A stretch of DNA of 64,000 nt from Candidatus Gottesmanbacteria bacterium (GCA_023245355.1 JAHFKN010000006.1:454-64453); one strand, 5' to 3'. Counted from the stretch's first letter, positions 2,209 to 56,113 are shown. Notes: a model not told the origin generated them from the letters alone. Numbers and translations are program-made.

Positions 2209-3102
2209 TCACTTCAAAAATCTGCGGAGCGCTATGGAGCTTCCCAACGCTCCCAGACAAAAACCGAGCAACATATTCCCCGCCAGGAAAACGGCCAGGG
2301 ATATAAGAAACGCTGAAGAGGTGAGGCTGGTAAATAATCCGCTGAGCGTCGGTATGGACCCTAAAAAGGTAAATAACTGCGGCCGGAGCCACGCGATGAC
2401 TCCGCTTAAGATAACCGAGGCCACAGCGGCTCCGATAAACCCGTAAAATCCCCCCTCCAGAATAAACGGCGCGCGTATGGTCCACGGAGTGGCTCCTACC
2501 AGCGTCAATATCTCTATCTCATCGCGTTTCATGGCAATCTTCATGGCAATAACCGTTCCGATGATGAGAAGCGAATCCACGACAAGAAGCAATGCAAGCG
2601 TTCCTCCCACCAGACGGATTGCATTGGTCCACGCCAGAAGCGAATCCACGACATCCCGCTGATACACTACCTCATCCACGCCTTCGGATCCGCCGATCAC
2701 TGTTGCCAGTTCCGACAAATACTGCGGATCGGTTGCCGATACTTCCAGTGATGCAGGCAGGATATCCGCCGTCACCATCTCGAGAAGCAGCGGGTCATTT
2801 TGATTTTGCTGCCGGTAGATTGCCAGTGCGTCTTCTTTGGATACATAGTGCGTTCCCGCTACCTTCCCGGTCGCTTCCAGTTTTGCTTTCAGATTATCGG
2901 CTTCCAGTTGTCCTGCTTTGGGGGTGAGAAACACCGTAACCTGCGGTTTGCCTTCGAAATATCCAAGCACCATCACGGAAGCCAGGGTCGCCAGGAAAAA
3001 TACGCCGCCCACAAGAAACGTCAGGAACATGGTCAGTGTTGCGGCCATCGCCTGATACGGACTGCGTCGGATATGTGTACGGACTTCTCTAGTGATTGGC
3101 AT
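2209..3102 (-). CDS. ftsX: Cell division permease FtsX
   Basis: Four-TM FtsX-like topology with a large extracellular loop. It sits downstream of ftsE. The probable start is the internal ATG (MPITREV) at 3102; the long ORF reaches 3177 and would overlap ftsE. Confidence 0.75.
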   Translation of the reverse strand: MPITREVRTHIRRSPYQAMAATLTMFLTFLVGGVFFLATLASVMVLGYFEGKPQVTVFLTPKAGQLEADNLKAKLEATGKVAGTHYVSKEDALAIYRQQNQNDPLLLEMVTADILPASLEVSATDPQYLSELATVIGGSEGVDEVVYQRDVVDSLLAWTNAIRLVGGTLALLLVVDSLLIIGTVIAMKIAMKRDEIEILTLVGATPWTIRAPFILEGGFYGFIGAAVASVILSGVIAWLRPQLFTFLGSIPTLSGLFTSLTSSAFLISLAVFLAGNMLLGFCLGALGSSIALRRFLK

Positions 3103-3820
3103 CGTGTTTCCCCCCTTTGGCAACCGGCTTTGCGTGTTTATCCAGATGATAATGCCCCTTCGCTTCATCGCGGACAATCGCCCCCTGATGAATGGTCAGC
3201 GTCCGCTTTTTCATTTTATTTACGATATCCGCATTGTGACTAGCGATGATAACCGTCGTTCCCAAATCATTCACTTCTTTTAAAATATCCATGATGCCCC
3301 ACGCGGTTTCCGGATCCAGATTGCCCGTCGGCTCGTCAGCAAGCAGAATTTTGGGACCTCCCACAATCGCGCGCGCAATGCTTGTCCGCTGCATTTCCCC
3401 GGCGGAAAGCTGCAGAGGAAACAGATTCCTCTTATCAGCCAATCCGACAAGTTCCAGCACGTTCATGACTCCCTGTTCTATATCGCGCTCCGGCTTGCCC
3501 AAAATCTCGAGCACCATAGCGATATTTTCAAACACCGTGCGGTCCAACAGCAGTTTGAAGTCCTGAAAAACAATGCCGACTTTTCTCCGCAGTAAATGGA
3601 TATTGCCTCCGTTGAACTTGCTGATATCCCCGCTATCGACCGTGATCGTGCCTTTTGACGGAACGAGGTCGCGGATAAGGAGACGGAGAAATGTCGTTTT
3701 GCCGCTCCCGGAAGGACCGATAAGAAACACAAATTCGCCTGCCGGTATTTCTACGGTTACATCAATCAGACCGGGAATTTTCCCCGGATAATATTTGGAG
3801 ACATTATTGAAGGTAATCAT
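3089..3820 (-). CDS. ftsE: Cell division ATP-binding protein FtsE
   Basis: Walker A motif GPSGSGKTT, the ABC signature LSAGEMQR, and Walker [13 protein letters not shown]. FtsE-type length and synteny with ftsX. Confidence 0.85.
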   Translation of the reverse strand: MITFNNVSKYYPGKIPGLIDVTVEIPAGEFVFLIGPSGSGKTTFLRLLIRDLVPSKGTITVDSGDISKFNGGNIHLLRRKVGIVFQDFKLLLDRTVFENIAMVLEILGKPERDIEQGVMNVLELVGLADKRNLFPLQLSAGEMQRTSIARAIVGGPKILLADEPTGNLDPETAWGIMDILKEVNDLGTTVIIASHNADIVNKMKKRTLTIHQGAIVRDEAKGHYHLDKHAKPVAKGGKHDANH

Positions 3821-4305
3821 TCAAGTTCCAACCTGCCTACATCCATAAGCCACGACACTTTTTTGGCTGCAAGCGTTTGACCGCACACTTTTACCTTTAA
3901 CCCGACGTACTGGTCCAGATCGACGATAGATGAGATAAGATATGCTGTTTGAGACGGTCCTCCGTCCCGGATGAGTTTATGCGTTCCTTCTCCTTCGACT
4001 CCGTCTTTTTCGACTTTGCCGCTCGCGCAATCCTTAAACGTCGAAGCGTCCTGGACGCCGACGACTTTGTTGGCCGTAATCGGAGTTCCTGCAGGAGCTA
4101 GCGGACTGCCCGCCGTACCTTTTTGCGAAAGAATGTACCCTGTACCGATACCGAGAAGCAGCAACACAACGTATACGATAACTACGACACGGGCTTCTTT
4201 TTTCACCGCGGGAAGCGGCGGACGTGTATCGGTAGCATCTACAGGACGGAGAACGGTCTGGGGTGCAACGCGTGAAGTAGGTTGTCTCATATACTCCATT
4301 ATCAC
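3817..4305 (-). CDS. Hypothetical single-pass membrane protein
   Basis: The ORF overlaps the ftsE start by 4 nt. It has one N-terminal TM helix followed by a soluble domain. No recognisable motif. Confidence 0.4.
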   Translation of the reverse strand: MIMEYMRQPTSRVAPQTVLRPVDATDTRPPLPAVKKEARVVVIVYVVLLLLGIGTGYILSQKGTAGSPLAPAGTPITANKVVGVQDASTFKDCASGKVEKDGVEGEGTHKLIRDGGPSQTAYLISSIVDLDQYVGLKVKVCGQTLAAKKVSWLMDVGRLELE

Positions 4306-4308
4306 GGC

Positions 4309-5316
4309 TTACGAATATTTTTTCAAGTACGCCAAAATAAAATCTTCCAGATCTCCGTCAAGCACGTGGTCTGTCGCCGACGTTTCGTATTCGGTACGCA
4401 GATCTTTTACCATATGGTACGGGTGCAATACATACGAGCGGATCTGATTGCCCCACCCCGGCGTTTTGTACACGCCACGCAATTCTTTCTGTTCGCTTCT
4501 GCGGCGCGCTTCTTCCACTTCCCACAGTTTGGCACGAAGCATCTTGAGTGCAAACTCGCGGTTCTGACCCTGATACCGTTGCGCCTGACTCGTGATGATA
4601 ATCCCCGTCGGGGTGTGCTTGAGCCTCACTGCAGTCGATACTTTGTTTACGTTCTGTCCGCCTTTGCCGCCGCTCCGGTAGAATTCCCATACCAGATCCT
4701 CTTCTTTGATATCGACTCCCCCTTCTTCCACGATCGGCAGCACTTCCACCATCGCAAATGATGTCTGCCGGAGTTTATCCGCATTAAACGGCGATTGCCG
4801 GACCAACCGGTGAACTCCTGCTTCCGCCTTAAGGAATCCGAATGCGAATCTTCCTGTTACCTCTAACGTGACGCTTTTTATCCCCGCCTCTTCGCCGGGC
4901 GTATAATCCATTTCTTCCATCTTCCAGCCTTTGCGTTCGATGTAGCGGGAGTACATGCGGTAAAGCATCTGTGTCCAGTCCATTGCCTCCGTGCCTCCCT
5001 GACCTGCGTGCAGCGCTATAATGGCATTCCCTTTGTCATACGGCCCCGACAGATAGAGCGCAAACTCCAGTCTGGTGATTTCTGATTTGAGCTGTTCTTC
5101 ATCTCCGAGCTCAAGAAGCAAGGCAAATTCCTCTCCTTCATTGAGTTCTTTCTGGAGAGAAGCCAGTTCCTGCATTTTGCGTCCGGCTGCCTCCGGCTCT
5201 TTCCAGAACCCCTCATGCATGCTTTCCGCTTCCAATTCGCGGATATGTTTACGCATGCCGTCCAGATCCAGCTTGGTCAGCAAAGATGATGCGCGTGATT
5301 TGAGTTCTTCATCCAT
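4309..5316 (-). CDS. prfB: Peptide chain release factor 2
   Basis: GGQ motif (SGGKGGQNVNK) and the RF2-specific SPF motif (RQSPFNAD). The ORF is a single continuous reading frame. Confidence 0.9.
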   Translation of the reverse strand: MDEELKSRASSLLTKLDLDGMRKHIRELEAESMHEGFWKEPEAAGRKMQELASLQKELNEGEEFALLLELGDEEQLKSEITRLEFALYLSGPYDKGNAIIALHAGQGGTEAMDWTQMLYRMYSRYIERKGWKMEEMDYTPGEEAGIKSVTLEVTGRFAFGFLKAEAGVHRLVRQSPFNADKLRQTSFAMVEVLPIVEEGGVDIKEEDLVWEFYRSGGKGGQNVNKVSTAVRLKHTPTGIIITSQAQRYQGQNREFALKMLRAKLWEVEEARRRSEQKELRGVYKTPGWGNQIRSYVLHPYHMVKDLRTEYETSATDHVLDGDLEDFILAYLKKYS

Positions 5317-5365
5317 ATGGGTTATTGCGTTACTGCCGCATGATGTACCGCACTATTGTACCATT

Positions 5366-6130
5366 TCATGCTCCCCCTAAGAGGCGGGAAATCAGAGGAA
5401 CTATCGTTATGCCGACTATCAGCGTAATAACCTGAATCACGGACGTTTTCCCATGGCGTTTCGTCAGAAGCTCCGGAATCAGATCGCTTGCCGCGATATA
5501 AAGAAAGTTTCCTGCGGCAAACGGGACCAGGTATTTTTCAAGATCAGAAAATTGAGCACTGACCAATAACACGAGCAGCGTGCCGACTATCGCCGTCGTC
5601 GCAGAAAGGAAATTAAACAAAAGCGCCCGTTTATTTGAGAATCCCCCGTGAATCAAAATCAGGAAATCACTCAACTCATGTGGAACTTCGTGCGCGATAA
5701 TGGCAATCGTCGTGGTTACACCAAGCGGCAAAGAAATCAGATACGATGCAGCGATGACTGCTCCGTCGGTAAAATTATGTATCCCGTCCCCGATGAGCGT
5801 CAAATAGGCAAGGGGTTTTTCCTCATGATCATGTCTTCCTTCCACGTGATGATGCCACTGAATAATTTTCTCCAGACAAAAAAATGAAATAAATCCTGTC
5901 AGCGTCCAAAAAAATACCCCGTCGGGAAGTAATACGACACCTTCCGGCAATAACTCAAAAAATGTACTCCCTAGCAATACTCCGGAAGAAAACGCAAGCG
6001 TATAGGTAATAATCTGCTCCAATGTTTTACGCTGAATGGAAATAAGAACGGCACCGAGCAGTGATAACAGGCTCACCCCGATAACCGAAATGAGGGCGTA
6101 AAAAGCTGTCATGAACGGCACCTCCTGCAC
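5366..6130 (-). CDS. zupT: ZIP family metal (zinc) transporter ZupT-like
   Basis: Eight-TM profile, the HEVPHELSDF ZIP signature, and a His-rich loop (HHHVEGRHDHEE). Confidence 0.8.
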   Translation of the reverse strand: MQEVPFMTAFYALISVIGVSLLSLLGAVLISIQRKTLEQIITYTLAFSSGVLLGSTFFELLPEGVVLLPDGVFFWTLTGFISFFCLEKIIQWHHHVEGRHDHEEKPLAYLTLIGDGIHNFTDGAVIAASYLISLPLGVTTTIAIIAHEVPHELSDFLILIHGGFSNKRALLFNFLSATTAIVGTLLVLLVSAQFSDLEKYLVPFAAGNFLYIAASDLIPELLTKRHGKTSVIQVITLIVGITIVPLISRLLGGA

Positions 6131-53612: not shown

Positions 53613-54194
53613 TTATTTCGTAAATATGAGGCTCATCAGGGCATCTCTCCCCTCGAGCGTACGGGACGAATAGACGATCACCGGATGATCTTTACAATCC
53701 TCGGCAATCTTTTTTAGCTGACTGTGGCGCTCACTCATAGAGAGTTTATCGACTTTGTTTGCAATGATGATAAACGGAATCTTGTTGTCCGTGAGGAGGT
53801 TGATGGATTCACGGTCATAATCCGTAAGCCCGACTTTTGCGTCGATAATCAGCACTGCAAGCTTATGGACAACCCCGGATCTGAACAAATACCAGGCGAT
53901 CAGTTTGCGGTAATGCTCCAGACTTTCACGGCTCCGTTTGGCGAATCCATACCCGGGCAAATCGACAAAAAACAATTTGTGCTGCACCAGAAAAAAATCA
54001 AGTTTCACCGTTTTCCCCGGCCTGCTGCTTGAGCGGGCAAGTTCCTTACCGATAAGAGAGTTAATCAGGCTTGATTTACCGACATTAGACCTGCCCAGAA
54101 ACGTAATTTTGGGCTTGTTGTCCTTGATAATGTCGTCCGTACCATTGATGCTTTTGACGTAACTGGCTTCCAGCGGAGAGTTATTCATATCCAA
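53613..54194 (-). CDS. engB: Ribosome biogenesis GTPase EngB (YsxC/YihA)
   Basis: G1 motif GRSNVGKSSL, G3 motif DLPGYG, and G4 motif NKVD. Confidence 0.9.
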   Translation of the reverse strand: MDMNNSPLEASYVKSINGTDDIIKDNKPKITFLGRSNVGKSSLINSLIGKELARSSSRPGKTVKLDFFLVQHKLFFVDLPGYGFAKRSRESLEHYRKLIAWYLFRSGVVHKLAVLIIDAKVGLTDYDRESINLLTDNKIPFIIIANKVDKLSMSERHSQLKKIAEDCKDHPVIVYSSRTLEGRDALMSLIFTK

Positions 54195-54206
54195 AAGGAG
54201 TATACG

Positions 54207-55378
54207 TCATAGATGCGGAAAGATATAGAGCTCCTCCTCTGCCCTGGTGACGGCGGTGTATAACCATCTGCGCCATTGATCATCCGTCATTTTGGAAAAC
54301 CGCTCCTCAAAAAGGATAACGCGTCTGGCCTGTGAACCCTGGGCTTTATGAACGGTAAGCGCATAGCCGAAATCAAACAAGTCGATGCCGTGATACCGCG
54401 CCCGGTCCTCGGTAAAGTTTAACGCGGTGTCAGCATCAAACTGATCTGCCGCAATAAGCCCTGAATACATTTCGCTTTCCCCGTCTATCTCTATATCCGC
54501 GGCATACGAACGGTCATTCATGCGCAGGATTTTTTTATCGTGCCGAGCATCCCGTTATAAATTTTCGCCCTGTGATTATTCCGAAGGCAAATGACACGGT
54601 CCCCTATCTCCGGAGTCGGAGTTTCAAACCCCAGGGCCGCGCGTATATAGGCATTTAACCTTTTCCTCGTTTTATTATAGCCGCACAAAATCAGTGTTTC
54701 CGACCGGTAATTCGTCAGCATTTCCTGCATGACTTCTCCCGTTTCCGCGTCATCGCCGCCGTATTTTATGACGGTTCCTGAATATCTGCCCGGTATAATC
54801 TCACCTGTCTTACGGGCGCTGATAGAAAGCGAAATAATCGGATTTTTCCGCGCCTGACGGTGTATCTCCTCCAATTTCACATGCGGCGTCTGCATGAGAG
54901 TAAAGTTACCTTTAATCGGCGGGAGCTGTCCGTGATCCCCGACCACAATCATCGGGACACGATAGGATATAAGGTGTTCCCATATCGTTTGATCGACCAT
55001 GGACCCTTCGTCCACAATGATAAGATTTCTGTCGATCTCGTCTTTTGTTTTCCACCCGACGATTTCTTCTTTGGCATTAAGTATGGGCGTATAGATAAGC
55101 GAGTGAATCGTCCCGACGCTGTCCTGACGGTAGAGCACATCCGCCTCTTTTATCTTGGTCTGCAGGACCCGCGCTGCTTTACCGGTAAAACTGACGAATC
55201 CTACCTTGAGCCCCGGGTCTATTTTGGCAAGCTCCCTACGTATCACGGCAATCAGTGTGGTTTTCCCGGTTCCCGCATAGCCGCCCAAGGTCACATACTG
55301 CATCGACCCCCTGTCTTTCCTATACCACTCCAGTATATGATCGAGTGCGGATTTTTGGTCTTTGGACAATACGGGCAT
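54207..55378 (-). pseudogene. Dda/RecD-like SF1 helicase split into two overlapping ORFs at an A7 tract (frameshift, possibly programmed or a sequencing artefact)
   Basis: The upstream ORF (54518-55378) has Walker A GYAGTGKTT, motif II IVDEGSM and an SH3-like insert (GDRVICLRNNH..YNGMLGTI). The downstream ORF (54207-54521) carries motif VI (TVHKAQGSQ). The two overlap by ATGA. A -1 slip in AAAAAAA (54531-54537) gives the in-frame fusion ...GTIKKILRMNDRS.... Confidence 0.7.
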
Positions 55379-55433
55379 ATGGAGACTCACTATAGTCCAG
55401 GGAAAATTATTAGTAAAGCAGGGCAAAGAAGAA

Positions 55434-55736
55434 TTATTTCCTGAAGCGTCTTAGTAATTTCCGGATATCTTCGACAAGAAGTGCCAGACCGATAGGACCT
55501 TCTTCCACATCATCCATGCCGGCCATACGGATATTGCGCCGTATTCTTCCTTTACTCAGCGCCTCCAGATCGGGAGAATGTTTAGCCACCATAAGACCTT
55601 GGAAGTCTTCTTCATCCCGGCCGGTTACCTGAGCAAGTTCAGCGCCGCTCAAAGGAACTCCCGCTTTGTGAAGCGTTACGGCATCCGCATATTTTTTCTG
55701 TGTTGCTGTTTTCTTCTCCGGCATAGCAAAATGCAA
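55434..55736 (-). CDS. Hypothetical small protein (100 aa) immediately upstream of the split helicase
   Basis: ORF packed 8 nt from the helicase start. No motif recognised. Confidence 0.35.
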   Translation of the reverse strand: MHFAMPEKKTATQKKYADAVTLHKAGVPLSGAELAQVTGRDEEDFQGLMVAKHSPDLEALSKGRIRRNIRMAGMDDVEEGPIGLALLVEDIRKLLRRFRK

Positions 55737-55845
55737 TTATACCGCAGGAAATGCGTATCGGTCATGTATATCCCGATATCGCTATTTTTATACACAAGCA
55801 GTTACCTTATATTTGCAGGCTAATTTAGGGTATAATACATACACT

Positions 55846-55898
55846 TGCGGGATCGTATAACGGTAGTACGTCCCGCTTCGCGGGATTATCTTGGTTCG
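55846..55898 (+). pseudogene. Truncated tRNA-Gln-like fragment (5' half duplicate) downstream of a TATAAT promoter
   Basis: 25 nt identical to the tRNA-Gln acceptor and D-arm (TGCGGGATCGTATAACGGTAGTACG), then a degenerate anticodon region and TATCTTGGTTCG. The 3' T-stem and acceptor are missing. TATAAT at 55831-55836. Confidence 0.55.
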
Positions 55899-55926
55899 TT
55901 TACATAATTGTATTTATCAACACTGC

Positions 55927-55997
55927 TGCGGGATCGTATAACGGTAGTACGCATCCCTCTGGAGGATGTTATCTTGGTTCGAATCCAAGTCCCGCAG
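55927..55997 (+). tRNA. tRNA-Gln (anticodon CUG)
   Basis: Hand-folded: U1-A72 acceptor (UGCGGGA/UCCCGCA), 3-bp D-stem GUA/UAC with a GG loop, anticodon stem CAUCC/GGAUG with loop CUCUGGA, T-arm CUUGG-UUCGAAU-CCAAG, discriminator G. CCA is not encoded. An 11-bp inverted repeat flanks it (55916-55926 / 55997-56007). Confidence 0.75.
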
Positions 55998-56113
55998 CAG
56001 TGTTGATAAGCACGAACAAACATCCAAATCCCGCAGCATATACAAAATTTGTCCGCCGGAATTTTTTTCGCGCAAACGCCGACAGCATCGAATACTGGTA
56101 CAATAGCCTCATC

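Follow-up and report, generated by a model that had tools for sequence, protein, structure and literature searches.

In a 64,000-nucleotide stretch of DNA from Candidatus Gottesmanbacteria bacterium (GCA_023245355.1, JAHFKN010000006.1:454-64453; hereafter the window), positions 54207-55378 carry two overlapping open reading frames (ORFs) which together resemble one helicase gene interrupted at a run of adenines. The locus raises the question of whether this interruption is an error of assembly, a site where recoding still yields the full-length enzyme, a functional arrangement in two pieces or a switch, or a broken gene. The last answer is the one that we consider likely: a real and recent deletion by replication slippage, which shortened a lineage-specific poly(A) tract from eight to seven adenines (A8 to A7) in the gene of a conserved helicase of superfamily 1B (SF1B) and left a newly disrupted allele with at best a trace of unprogrammed rescue. 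An initial annotation of the window had listed a recent pseudogene or a 1-nucleotide indel among several explanations, and this one is favoured by the in-frame A8 of the nearest relatives, the recurrence of A7 and the lack of further decay.

The elements of the interrupted gene are the following.

54518-55378, minus strand: ORF1, with 283 N-terminal codons for domains 1A/1B, the first half of domain 2A and the first strands of the SH3-like domain 2B, then SCA and a TGA stop

54530-54536, minus strand: the A7 homopolymer, A_AAA_AAA in frame, where 1 nucleotide has been deleted by comparison with the A8 of the nearest orthologs

54207-54521, minus strand: ORF2, with 104 C-terminal codons for the remaining SH3-like domain, the second half of domain 2A and motifs V and VI

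ORF1 encodes 286 amino acids when counted from the ATG that matches the start of the orthologs; the ORF lister extended it upstream to a TTG at 55426. ORF2 encodes 104 amino acids. The end of ORF1 and the start of ORF2 share the ATGA at 54518-54521, an overlap already described in the initial annotation, which had placed the homopolymer (T7 on the plus strand, A7 on the coding strand) one base too high, at 54531-54537. In the frame of ORF1, the junction reads ACG ATA AAA AAA TCC TGC GCA TGA; the stop codon lies 9 nucleotides downstream of the run and the last three residues of ORF1 (SCA) are out of frame. The ATG of ORF2 corresponds to the internal Met287 of the intact protein and is conserved in close relatives only.

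Upon addition of one A to the run, a single protein of 390 amino acids was obtained, reading ...GMLGTIKKILRMNDRSY... (= ...GMLGTIKKILRMNDRSYAADIEIDG...), which is exactly the peptide announced for a seamless fusion by a 1-nucleotide shift. Intact 390-residue proteins align with the restored protein from end to end, at 96-98% identity. When the whole gene was aligned at the DNA level with each of six orthologs, the sole gap column was one A in the run. As this single base is the only gap against all six, the restored reading frame is not due to chance.

In order to establish the identity of the product, both ORFs and their fusion were compared with domain, family and structure collections. Walker A (GYAGTGKT) and motif II (IIVDEGSM) are both located in ORF1, and their residues are invariant across a 32-sequence alignment. 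ORF1 matched the Pfam families AAA_30 (~71.5-72.5 bits) and AAA_19 (~64.5-65 bits), both above cut-off. ORF2, which carries TVHKAQGS and YTAVTRAEEEL, matched UvrD_C_2 with 61-64 bits, and in the fused protein the three families were all found above their Pfam cut-offs. The ORF2 motifs align to ALTVHRAQGS and YTALTRA of RecD2. TVHKAQGS had been presented as motif VI; in the standard SF1 nomenclature it is motif V, YTAVTRA being motif VI. By sequence, the closest solved structures were those of a Dda-like helicase (9kwf), Deinococcus RecD2 (3e1s), DSH9 and T4 Dda. The nearest NCBIfam entry was the RecD2 equivalog TIGR01448, whose match spans model positions 334-686 of 713, the helicase core alone; membership in this equivalog was rejected, the score being 128 bits for a cut-off of 500 and the full-length N-terminal architecture being absent.

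An AlphaFold2 model was made for an intact ortholog 96% identical to the restored protein (P0001; mean predicted local distance difference test score, pLDDT, 78.5). When this model was compared with the PDB by Foldseek, DSH9 was matched first (8jx6, 8e-22), followed by Dda (3upu, 1e-19, template modelling (TM) score 0.70), RecD2 (3gpl, 9e-18), RecD and then Pif1 helicases. With the RecD2, Dda and DSH9 enzymes (PDB 3e1s/3gpl, 3upu, 8jx6, 9kwf), the window helicase shares Walker A, DExx and motifs V and VI, an SH3-like 2B insert in domain 2A, and a fold match with Foldseek E values of 1e-22 to 1e-16 and TM scores of 0.6-0.7. It differs from them in being shorter (390 amino acids), in lacking the N-terminal domain of RecD2 and in having only ~20-25% sequence identity to any solved structure. 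Pfam, the sequence matches to the PDB and Foldseek thus agree with the initial label, and the product is predicted, from its sequence and modelled fold, to be an SF1B helicase of the Dda/RecD type.

The SH3-like insert deserved particular attention, since the interruption falls within it. The Pfam match to SH3_13 at residues 257-288 is below threshold (26.9 bits for a cut-off of 41), yet the insert, as proposed initially, is supported by the alignment to the SH3 segment of RecD2 (438-463) and by a four-strand barrel at 261-310 in the predicted structure, placing an SH3-like 2B domain within 2A. In the P0001 model the barrel strands are formed by residues 261-264, 278-286, 291-298 and 304-310, and the frameshift point (residue 283/284) lies inside the second of these. 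Motifs I-IV remain with ORF1, while the rest of the barrel and motifs V and VI go with ORF2. Because the break parts motifs I-IV from V and VI within a beta strand of the 2B domain, the ORF1 product alone would not be an active helicase.

To determine whether the interruption is shared by related genes, orthologs were examined at the protein and DNA levels. A protein search returned thousands of relatives, of which the best 120 were single proteins of ~365-408 amino acids with 65-96% identity, from sources named Patescibacteria, Gottesmanbacteria, Daviesbacteria and Microgenomates. DNA was compared for 22 related loci, 20 of which are other than the window's own allele; each of these 20 gave one unbroken tblastn segment with an intact ORF of ~390 codons. 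No conserved need to frameshift was found among these 20 loci and the top database hits, all of them single in-frame ORFs. The conservation of the split in orthologs, which had been put forward as a check, was therefore not observed.

P0123 is the nearest intact allele; two of its four loci (L009-L012) come from two JGI metagenomes and the others from two Logan run assemblies. It differs from the window by 53 substitutions and the indel over 1173 nucleotides (95% nucleotide identity) and reads ATA AAA AAA ATC, that is A8. A8 is also found in L001, at 86% nucleotide identity. More distant orthologs are devoid of an A run, with ATT ACA AAA ATC (TK), ATT GCC AAT ATT (AN), CTT GAA (LE) or ACC GGA (TG) at this place, and the residues at the position of the two lysines are not conserved among them (TK, AN, LE, TG, IS or RF). 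In the 90%-identity protein cluster of the helicase, all eight members of 390 amino acids read IKKILRMNDRSY in frame. Since A8 is present in the nearest relatives and distant orthologs have no run, the sequences compared indicate that the A8 run is a recent, lineage-specific feature and that A7 derives from it by deletion of 1 nucleotide. An unrelated sequence of 55 amino acids (P0122) is also filed in this 90%-identity cluster, which looks like a quirk of the database clustering.

The reproducibility of A7 was then considered. The exact ORF2 protein was called on four contigs (83 kb, 23 kb and two of 10-20 kb), which belong to one strain with 100% identity; the frameshift was not found in sister lineages. 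Both ORFs, including the exact 286-residue product of ORF1, are on record from NCBI, Logan and ENA. Two ENA contigs show no mismatch to the window, A7 included, over 6315 nucleotides (L007, ERZ27279977) and 12457 nucleotides (L008, ERZ27279942); they were separately assembled, bear MEGAHIT-style k141 names and differ in their lengths and ends. An A8 (fused) version of the window's exact allele was absent from a collection of 15 billion proteins, and a scan of JGI metagenomes for A7-A9 alleles with the flanks of the window returned only the A8 contig already known.

The rest of the window was inspected for comparable lesions. Over the ~17 kb that could be aligned with L009 (92.6% identity), no gene body has an uncompensated indel apart from the helicase A7, the other gene-body gaps being compensated pairs in divergent stretches. 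Two further uncompensated 1-nucleotide gaps lie at the 5' edge of the greA gene as called in L009, upstream of the likely greA start. In addition, all 136 homopolymers of at least 6 nucleotides in the window were tested for fusion of ORFs upon addition or removal of 1 nucleotide. Besides the helicase site, five positions were flagged (3110, 4318, 41551, 48198 and 51310), which are ends or boundaries of neighbouring genes and not one broken gene: the boundaries inspected were ftsE/ftsX, the end of an ORF resembling release factor 2 (RF2) and sufS/sufU, while 48198 and 51310, judged from the gene calls of L009, are response-regulator/kinase and ABC/FtsX junctions. A general sloppiness of the assembly was rejected on this basis, none of the other 135 homopolymers breaking a gene.

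To estimate the age of the lesion, the 53 substitutions between the window and its sister allele were polarised with L001 as outgroup. The window branch received 18 synonymous and 3 nonsynonymous substitutions and the sister branch 19 and 2, respectively; with 264 synonymous and 906 nonsynonymous sites, the ratio of nonsynonymous to synonymous rates (dN/dS) is ~0.05 on the former and ~0.03 on the latter. Under neutrality, the probability of observing at most 3 nonsynonymous changes out of 21 is 1.5e-9, and a rough Poisson bound limits neutral drift to less than ~10% of the window branch. No further stop or indel was found in either half. The 18:3 substitutions and the absence of further decay point to a frameshift that is very young, or to a gene that is still under selection or tolerates the change.

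These observations are consistent with the following scheme. In a Patescibacterium of the Microgenomates (Gottesmanbacteria-like), the ancestral gene would have been a chromosomal single ORF for a 390-residue SF1B helicase, forming an operon with engB. Codons 281-284 would have turned into ATA AAA AAA ATC recently in the history of the clade, thereby creating the A8 run, from which one A would then have been lost by replication slippage in the lineage of the window. The frame would shift after K283 and reach a stop 3 codons further on. The gene would most likely be a newly inactivated or strongly under-expressed allele. Full-length protein would represent a small fraction at most, produced by insertion of an A by RNA polymerase or by -1 slippage of the ribosome on A_AAA_AAA; by both routes the ancestral ...TIKKILRMND... 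would be regained exactly.

Several points weigh against this scheme. The lack of a second lesion and the dN/dS of ~0.05 would be equally expected if the gene were functional, whether by rescue, in two pieces or with a true A8. The loss, in a free population, of a helicase so conserved across Microgenomates (65% between classes) would be somewhat unexpected. Finally, A7 is read from assembled consensus sequences, and the contigs may all stem from related samples, taken in one study and from one clonal population.

This last point leads to the possibility that the organism truly has A8 and an intact gene, the consensus having dropped one A. Such an artefact would account for a lesion located exactly within a homopolymer, in a gene of a highly conserved family which is otherwise free of decay and has A8 in its nearest relatives. 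However, A7 occurs on four contigs, two of them separately assembled with different ends, and in ORFs deposited in Logan and NCBI as well; the other 135 homopolymers are intact, the ~17 kb aligned with L009 contain no other uncompensated indel in a gene body, and no A8 version of the exact allele is on record in the 15-billion-protein collection. A8 is rarely miscalled in a short-read consensus. Because A7 recurs in separate assemblies and no other gene of the window is broken at a homopolymer, A7 is probably real, and the error of assembly or of homopolymer sequencing contemplated in the initial annotation is unlikely. A functional split gene, in which ORF2 would be translated by termination-reinitiation at the ATGA and the halves would reassemble, or an on/off phase switch between A7 and A8, appears more doubtful still. 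Translational coupling is possible at the ATGA overlap, both halves are intact, tract length differs among closely related lineages, and homopolymer tracts have been proposed as a general on/off device of prokaryotes (PMC2831843). Against a split, the break cuts a beta strand of the modelled SH3-like barrel and removes residues 284-286, which would be a poor place for viable halves; the ATG of ORF2 is merely the internal Met287, not conserved beyond close relatives, and no other lineage is split. In the 90%-identity cluster, KKI is in frame in each of the eight 390-residue alleles, which speaks for selection of the in-frame state; with respect to the switch, A7 alone is found for this strain at the consensus level, and the allele is not recorded with A8. 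Core helicases in an engB operon are not the usual kind of contingency gene.

A maintained recoding, in which the full-length helicase would be made by -1 frameshifting or by transcriptional insertion of an A, as a programmed event or as a tolerated rescue, was weighed together with these readings and is, in our opinion, very improbable. In its favour, the heptamer fits X_XXY_YYZ in the zero frame (AT[A AAA AAA] TCC), and a -1 shift leads to IKKILRM, that is, to the exact ancestral peptide; both halves are undamaged, with a dN/dS of ~0.05, and a precedent exists in the endosymbionts Blochmannia and Buchnera (PMC3017870). On the other hand, the shift is needed in one clonal allele only, the sisters at 95% and 86% nucleotide identity being in frame and the distant ones having no run. 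The 80 nucleotides downstream fold with -22.7 kcal/mol, which is within chance (z -1.15; the fold is equalled by 26 of 200 shuffles), no GGAGG-like (Shine-Dalgarno-like) element was seen in the sequence upstream of the run, and the in-frame A8 relatives have the same flanks. The dnaX system, which the initial annotation had invoked, likewise has an A-rich X_XXY_YYZ heptamer in the zero frame, with tRNA-Lys at both sites; in dnaX, however, the heptamer is A_AAA_AAG and is accompanied by an upstream Shine-Dalgarno-like element and a downstream hairpin, whereas here the last base is A, no stimulators were found and the site is not conserved. Moreover, the shifted product of dnaX is a shorter protein made beside the full-length one, while the shift would be needed here for the only functional product. 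A programmed -1 frameshift of the dnaX type was consequently rejected, as every ortholog does without the shift, neither the run nor the KK residues extend beyond the lineage, and no significant structure follows.

With regard to an unprogrammed rescue, A_AAA_AAA is far less prone to shifting than A_AAA_AAG in E. coli (PMC5009743). Transcriptional insertions become exponentially more frequent as A/T runs grow longer, and rescue by slippage in endosymbionts has been reported (Tamas et al. 2008, as cited in PMC5574713), but no transcription error restoring a reading frame was detected in a transcriptome-wide study (PMC5574713). For E. coli RNA polymerase to bypass an indel, a run must count at least 7 T, or a larger number of A (PMC6260861), so that runs of more than ~7 A would be required of the bacterial enzyme. 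For the poly(A/T) frameshifts of Blochmannia and Buchnera, including those in dnaX and dnaG, correction by transcriptional slippage has been proposed or shown, with tracts of 9-12 in very AT-rich genomes (PMC3017870). The window resembles these cases in that a single-base indel in an A/T homopolymer (A8 to A7, the sole lesion) affects an otherwise undamaged information-processing gene of a small-genome bacterium, and in that evolutionary rates are not elevated on the affected lineage. It departs from them in its tract of 7 A, short of the ~9 or more of the reported cases, in a genome of 50% GC that is not AT-rich, in a frameshift that is not shared with sister lineages, and in the occurrence of one such case in 64 kb. 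Since A_AAA_AAA is a weak shifter, the polymerase needs longer runs and the endosymbiont tracts are of 9-12, an A7 in a 50% GC genome should give only little corrected product. That the A7 allele would be stably maintained as a low-expression core helicase, with enough full-length enzyme provided by slippage of the polymerase or the ribosome, seems to us a slim prospect; if true, the 'polymerase infidelity rescue' of endosymbionts would extend to a free-living or episymbiotic bacterium of the candidate phyla radiation (CPR), with a 7-A tract and a 50% GC genome.

An alternative genetic code was also considered and rejected. At 4309-5316 on the minus strand, the window contains one uninterrupted ORF of 335 amino acids, which we take to be RF2-like from the SPF and GGQ motifs in its translation, and which is without the +1 programmed frameshift of many bacterial prfB genes. 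This uninterrupted ORF fits a reading of TGA as stop, and read-through of TGA would in any case remain out of frame.

It was finally asked whether the helicase belongs to the chromosome proper or to a mobile module. The gene order at the locus is greA, tRNA-Gln, a 96-residue ORF, the helicase and engB, and the neighbouring features are as follows.

53613-54194, minus strand: engB/ysxC-type GTPase gene (MMR_HSR1, 68 bits), immediately downstream of the helicase and its conserved operon partner

55434-55724, minus strand: ORF of 96 amino acids directly upstream of the helicase, without Pfam or PADLOC match

55846-55899, plus strand: partial copy of tRNA-Gln, 54 nucleotides, with its 5' 25 nucleotides identical and its 3' end missing

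55927-55998, plus strand: tRNA-Gln(CTG), 58.6 bits, in divergent orientation to the helicase operon, with greA next

Wherever the flanking sequence of a locus was long enough, engB was found to follow the helicase directly, down to ~72-76% amino acid identity. The base composition of the helicase is that of its surroundings: 49.8% GC compared with 50.1% for the window, and a GC content at third codon positions (GC3) of 0.56-0.58, the same as in engB. No paralog of the helicase was found in the 64-kb window. Because the helicase-engB pair is syntenic across species and its composition is window-like, the remnant of a mobile or phage-derived module suggested by the initial annotation finds no support and was rejected; the pair is, on this comparative evidence, predicted to form a core chromosomal operon. 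A defence system was rejected as well, the PADLOC matches being generic helicase-domain matches to much longer profiles and the context being of the housekeeping type.

The helicase had been described as lying between engB and a tRNA-Gln locus. These flanks are correct, but the 96-residue ORF intervenes before the tRNA-Gln. This ORF is conserved (91% in L001, 98% in L009 and 53% in L016, Gottesmanbacteria UBA6580) and probably represents a genuine gene, transcribed together with the helicase and engB. At most of the loci, greA and tRNA-Gln are close by; the tRNA-Gln lies beside the locus in L002, L006, L009, L014 and L016. Relative to the helicase, it has one orientation in the window, L009, L014 and L016 and the opposite one in L002 and L006. 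In L006 (GCA_964360105.1, whose ortholog has 86% amino acid identity), a four-gene block of ~2.9 kb (3044-5938), with genes for a Shedu-type (SduA_C) nuclease and a HEPN protein among the four, is present between the tRNA-Gln and the helicase. In the clade of the window, this space is occupied by the 96-residue ORF and the partial copy of tRNA-Gln. From these arrangements, the spacer between tRNA-Gln and helicase seems to be a site of variable insertions, in contrast to the constant helicase-engB pair.

The tRNA-fragment scar mentioned initially near the tRNA-Gln is real and corresponds to the partial copy. A CCCGC-TTCG-GCGGG hairpin takes the place of its anticodon arm, and the T arm retains its 5' strand. 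A 22-nucleotide seed of tRNA-Gln occurs in two copies in the window lineage and in L009-L011, and in one copy in L002 and L014. As a TATAAT box (55830-55835) is located ~10 nucleotides upstream of the fragment, the latter may be the leader of a tRNA-Gln/greA transcript; it belongs to the context and is not part of the helicase lesion. Between the tRNA-Gln and the likely greA start, in what is probably a non-coding leader, a homopolymer at 56062-56068 (plus strand) counts 7 nucleotides in the window and 6 in L009. Changes of tract length between these two sequences are therefore not confined to the helicase.

An annotation of the locus should give a single gene with a frameshift, either a pseudogene or an allele that is disrupted, for the SF1B helicase conserved in Patescibacteria; the two ORFs are not to be taken for two genes, for a recoding site or for the relic of a mobile element. 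The event is of an ordinary kind, a frameshift mutation and not a programmed recoding signal. If reads or transcripts showed rescue or heterogeneity, the case would be a small addition to the known slippage-tolerated frameshifts. The lesion recurs in separate short-read assemblies and thus appears to be a genuine instance of a gene caught at its inactivation, in a streamlined genome where the A8 tract had newly arisen. The sequences compared also place the helicase in a Patescibacteria-specific subfamily that is tightly linked to engB in the closer relatives and unusually conserved, with members in Gottesman-, Woese-, Levy- and Daviesbacteria retaining ~65% identity from one Microgenomates class to another. 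This family of ~390 amino acids, which is biochemically uncharacterised and has no characterised member, may deserve a study of its own.

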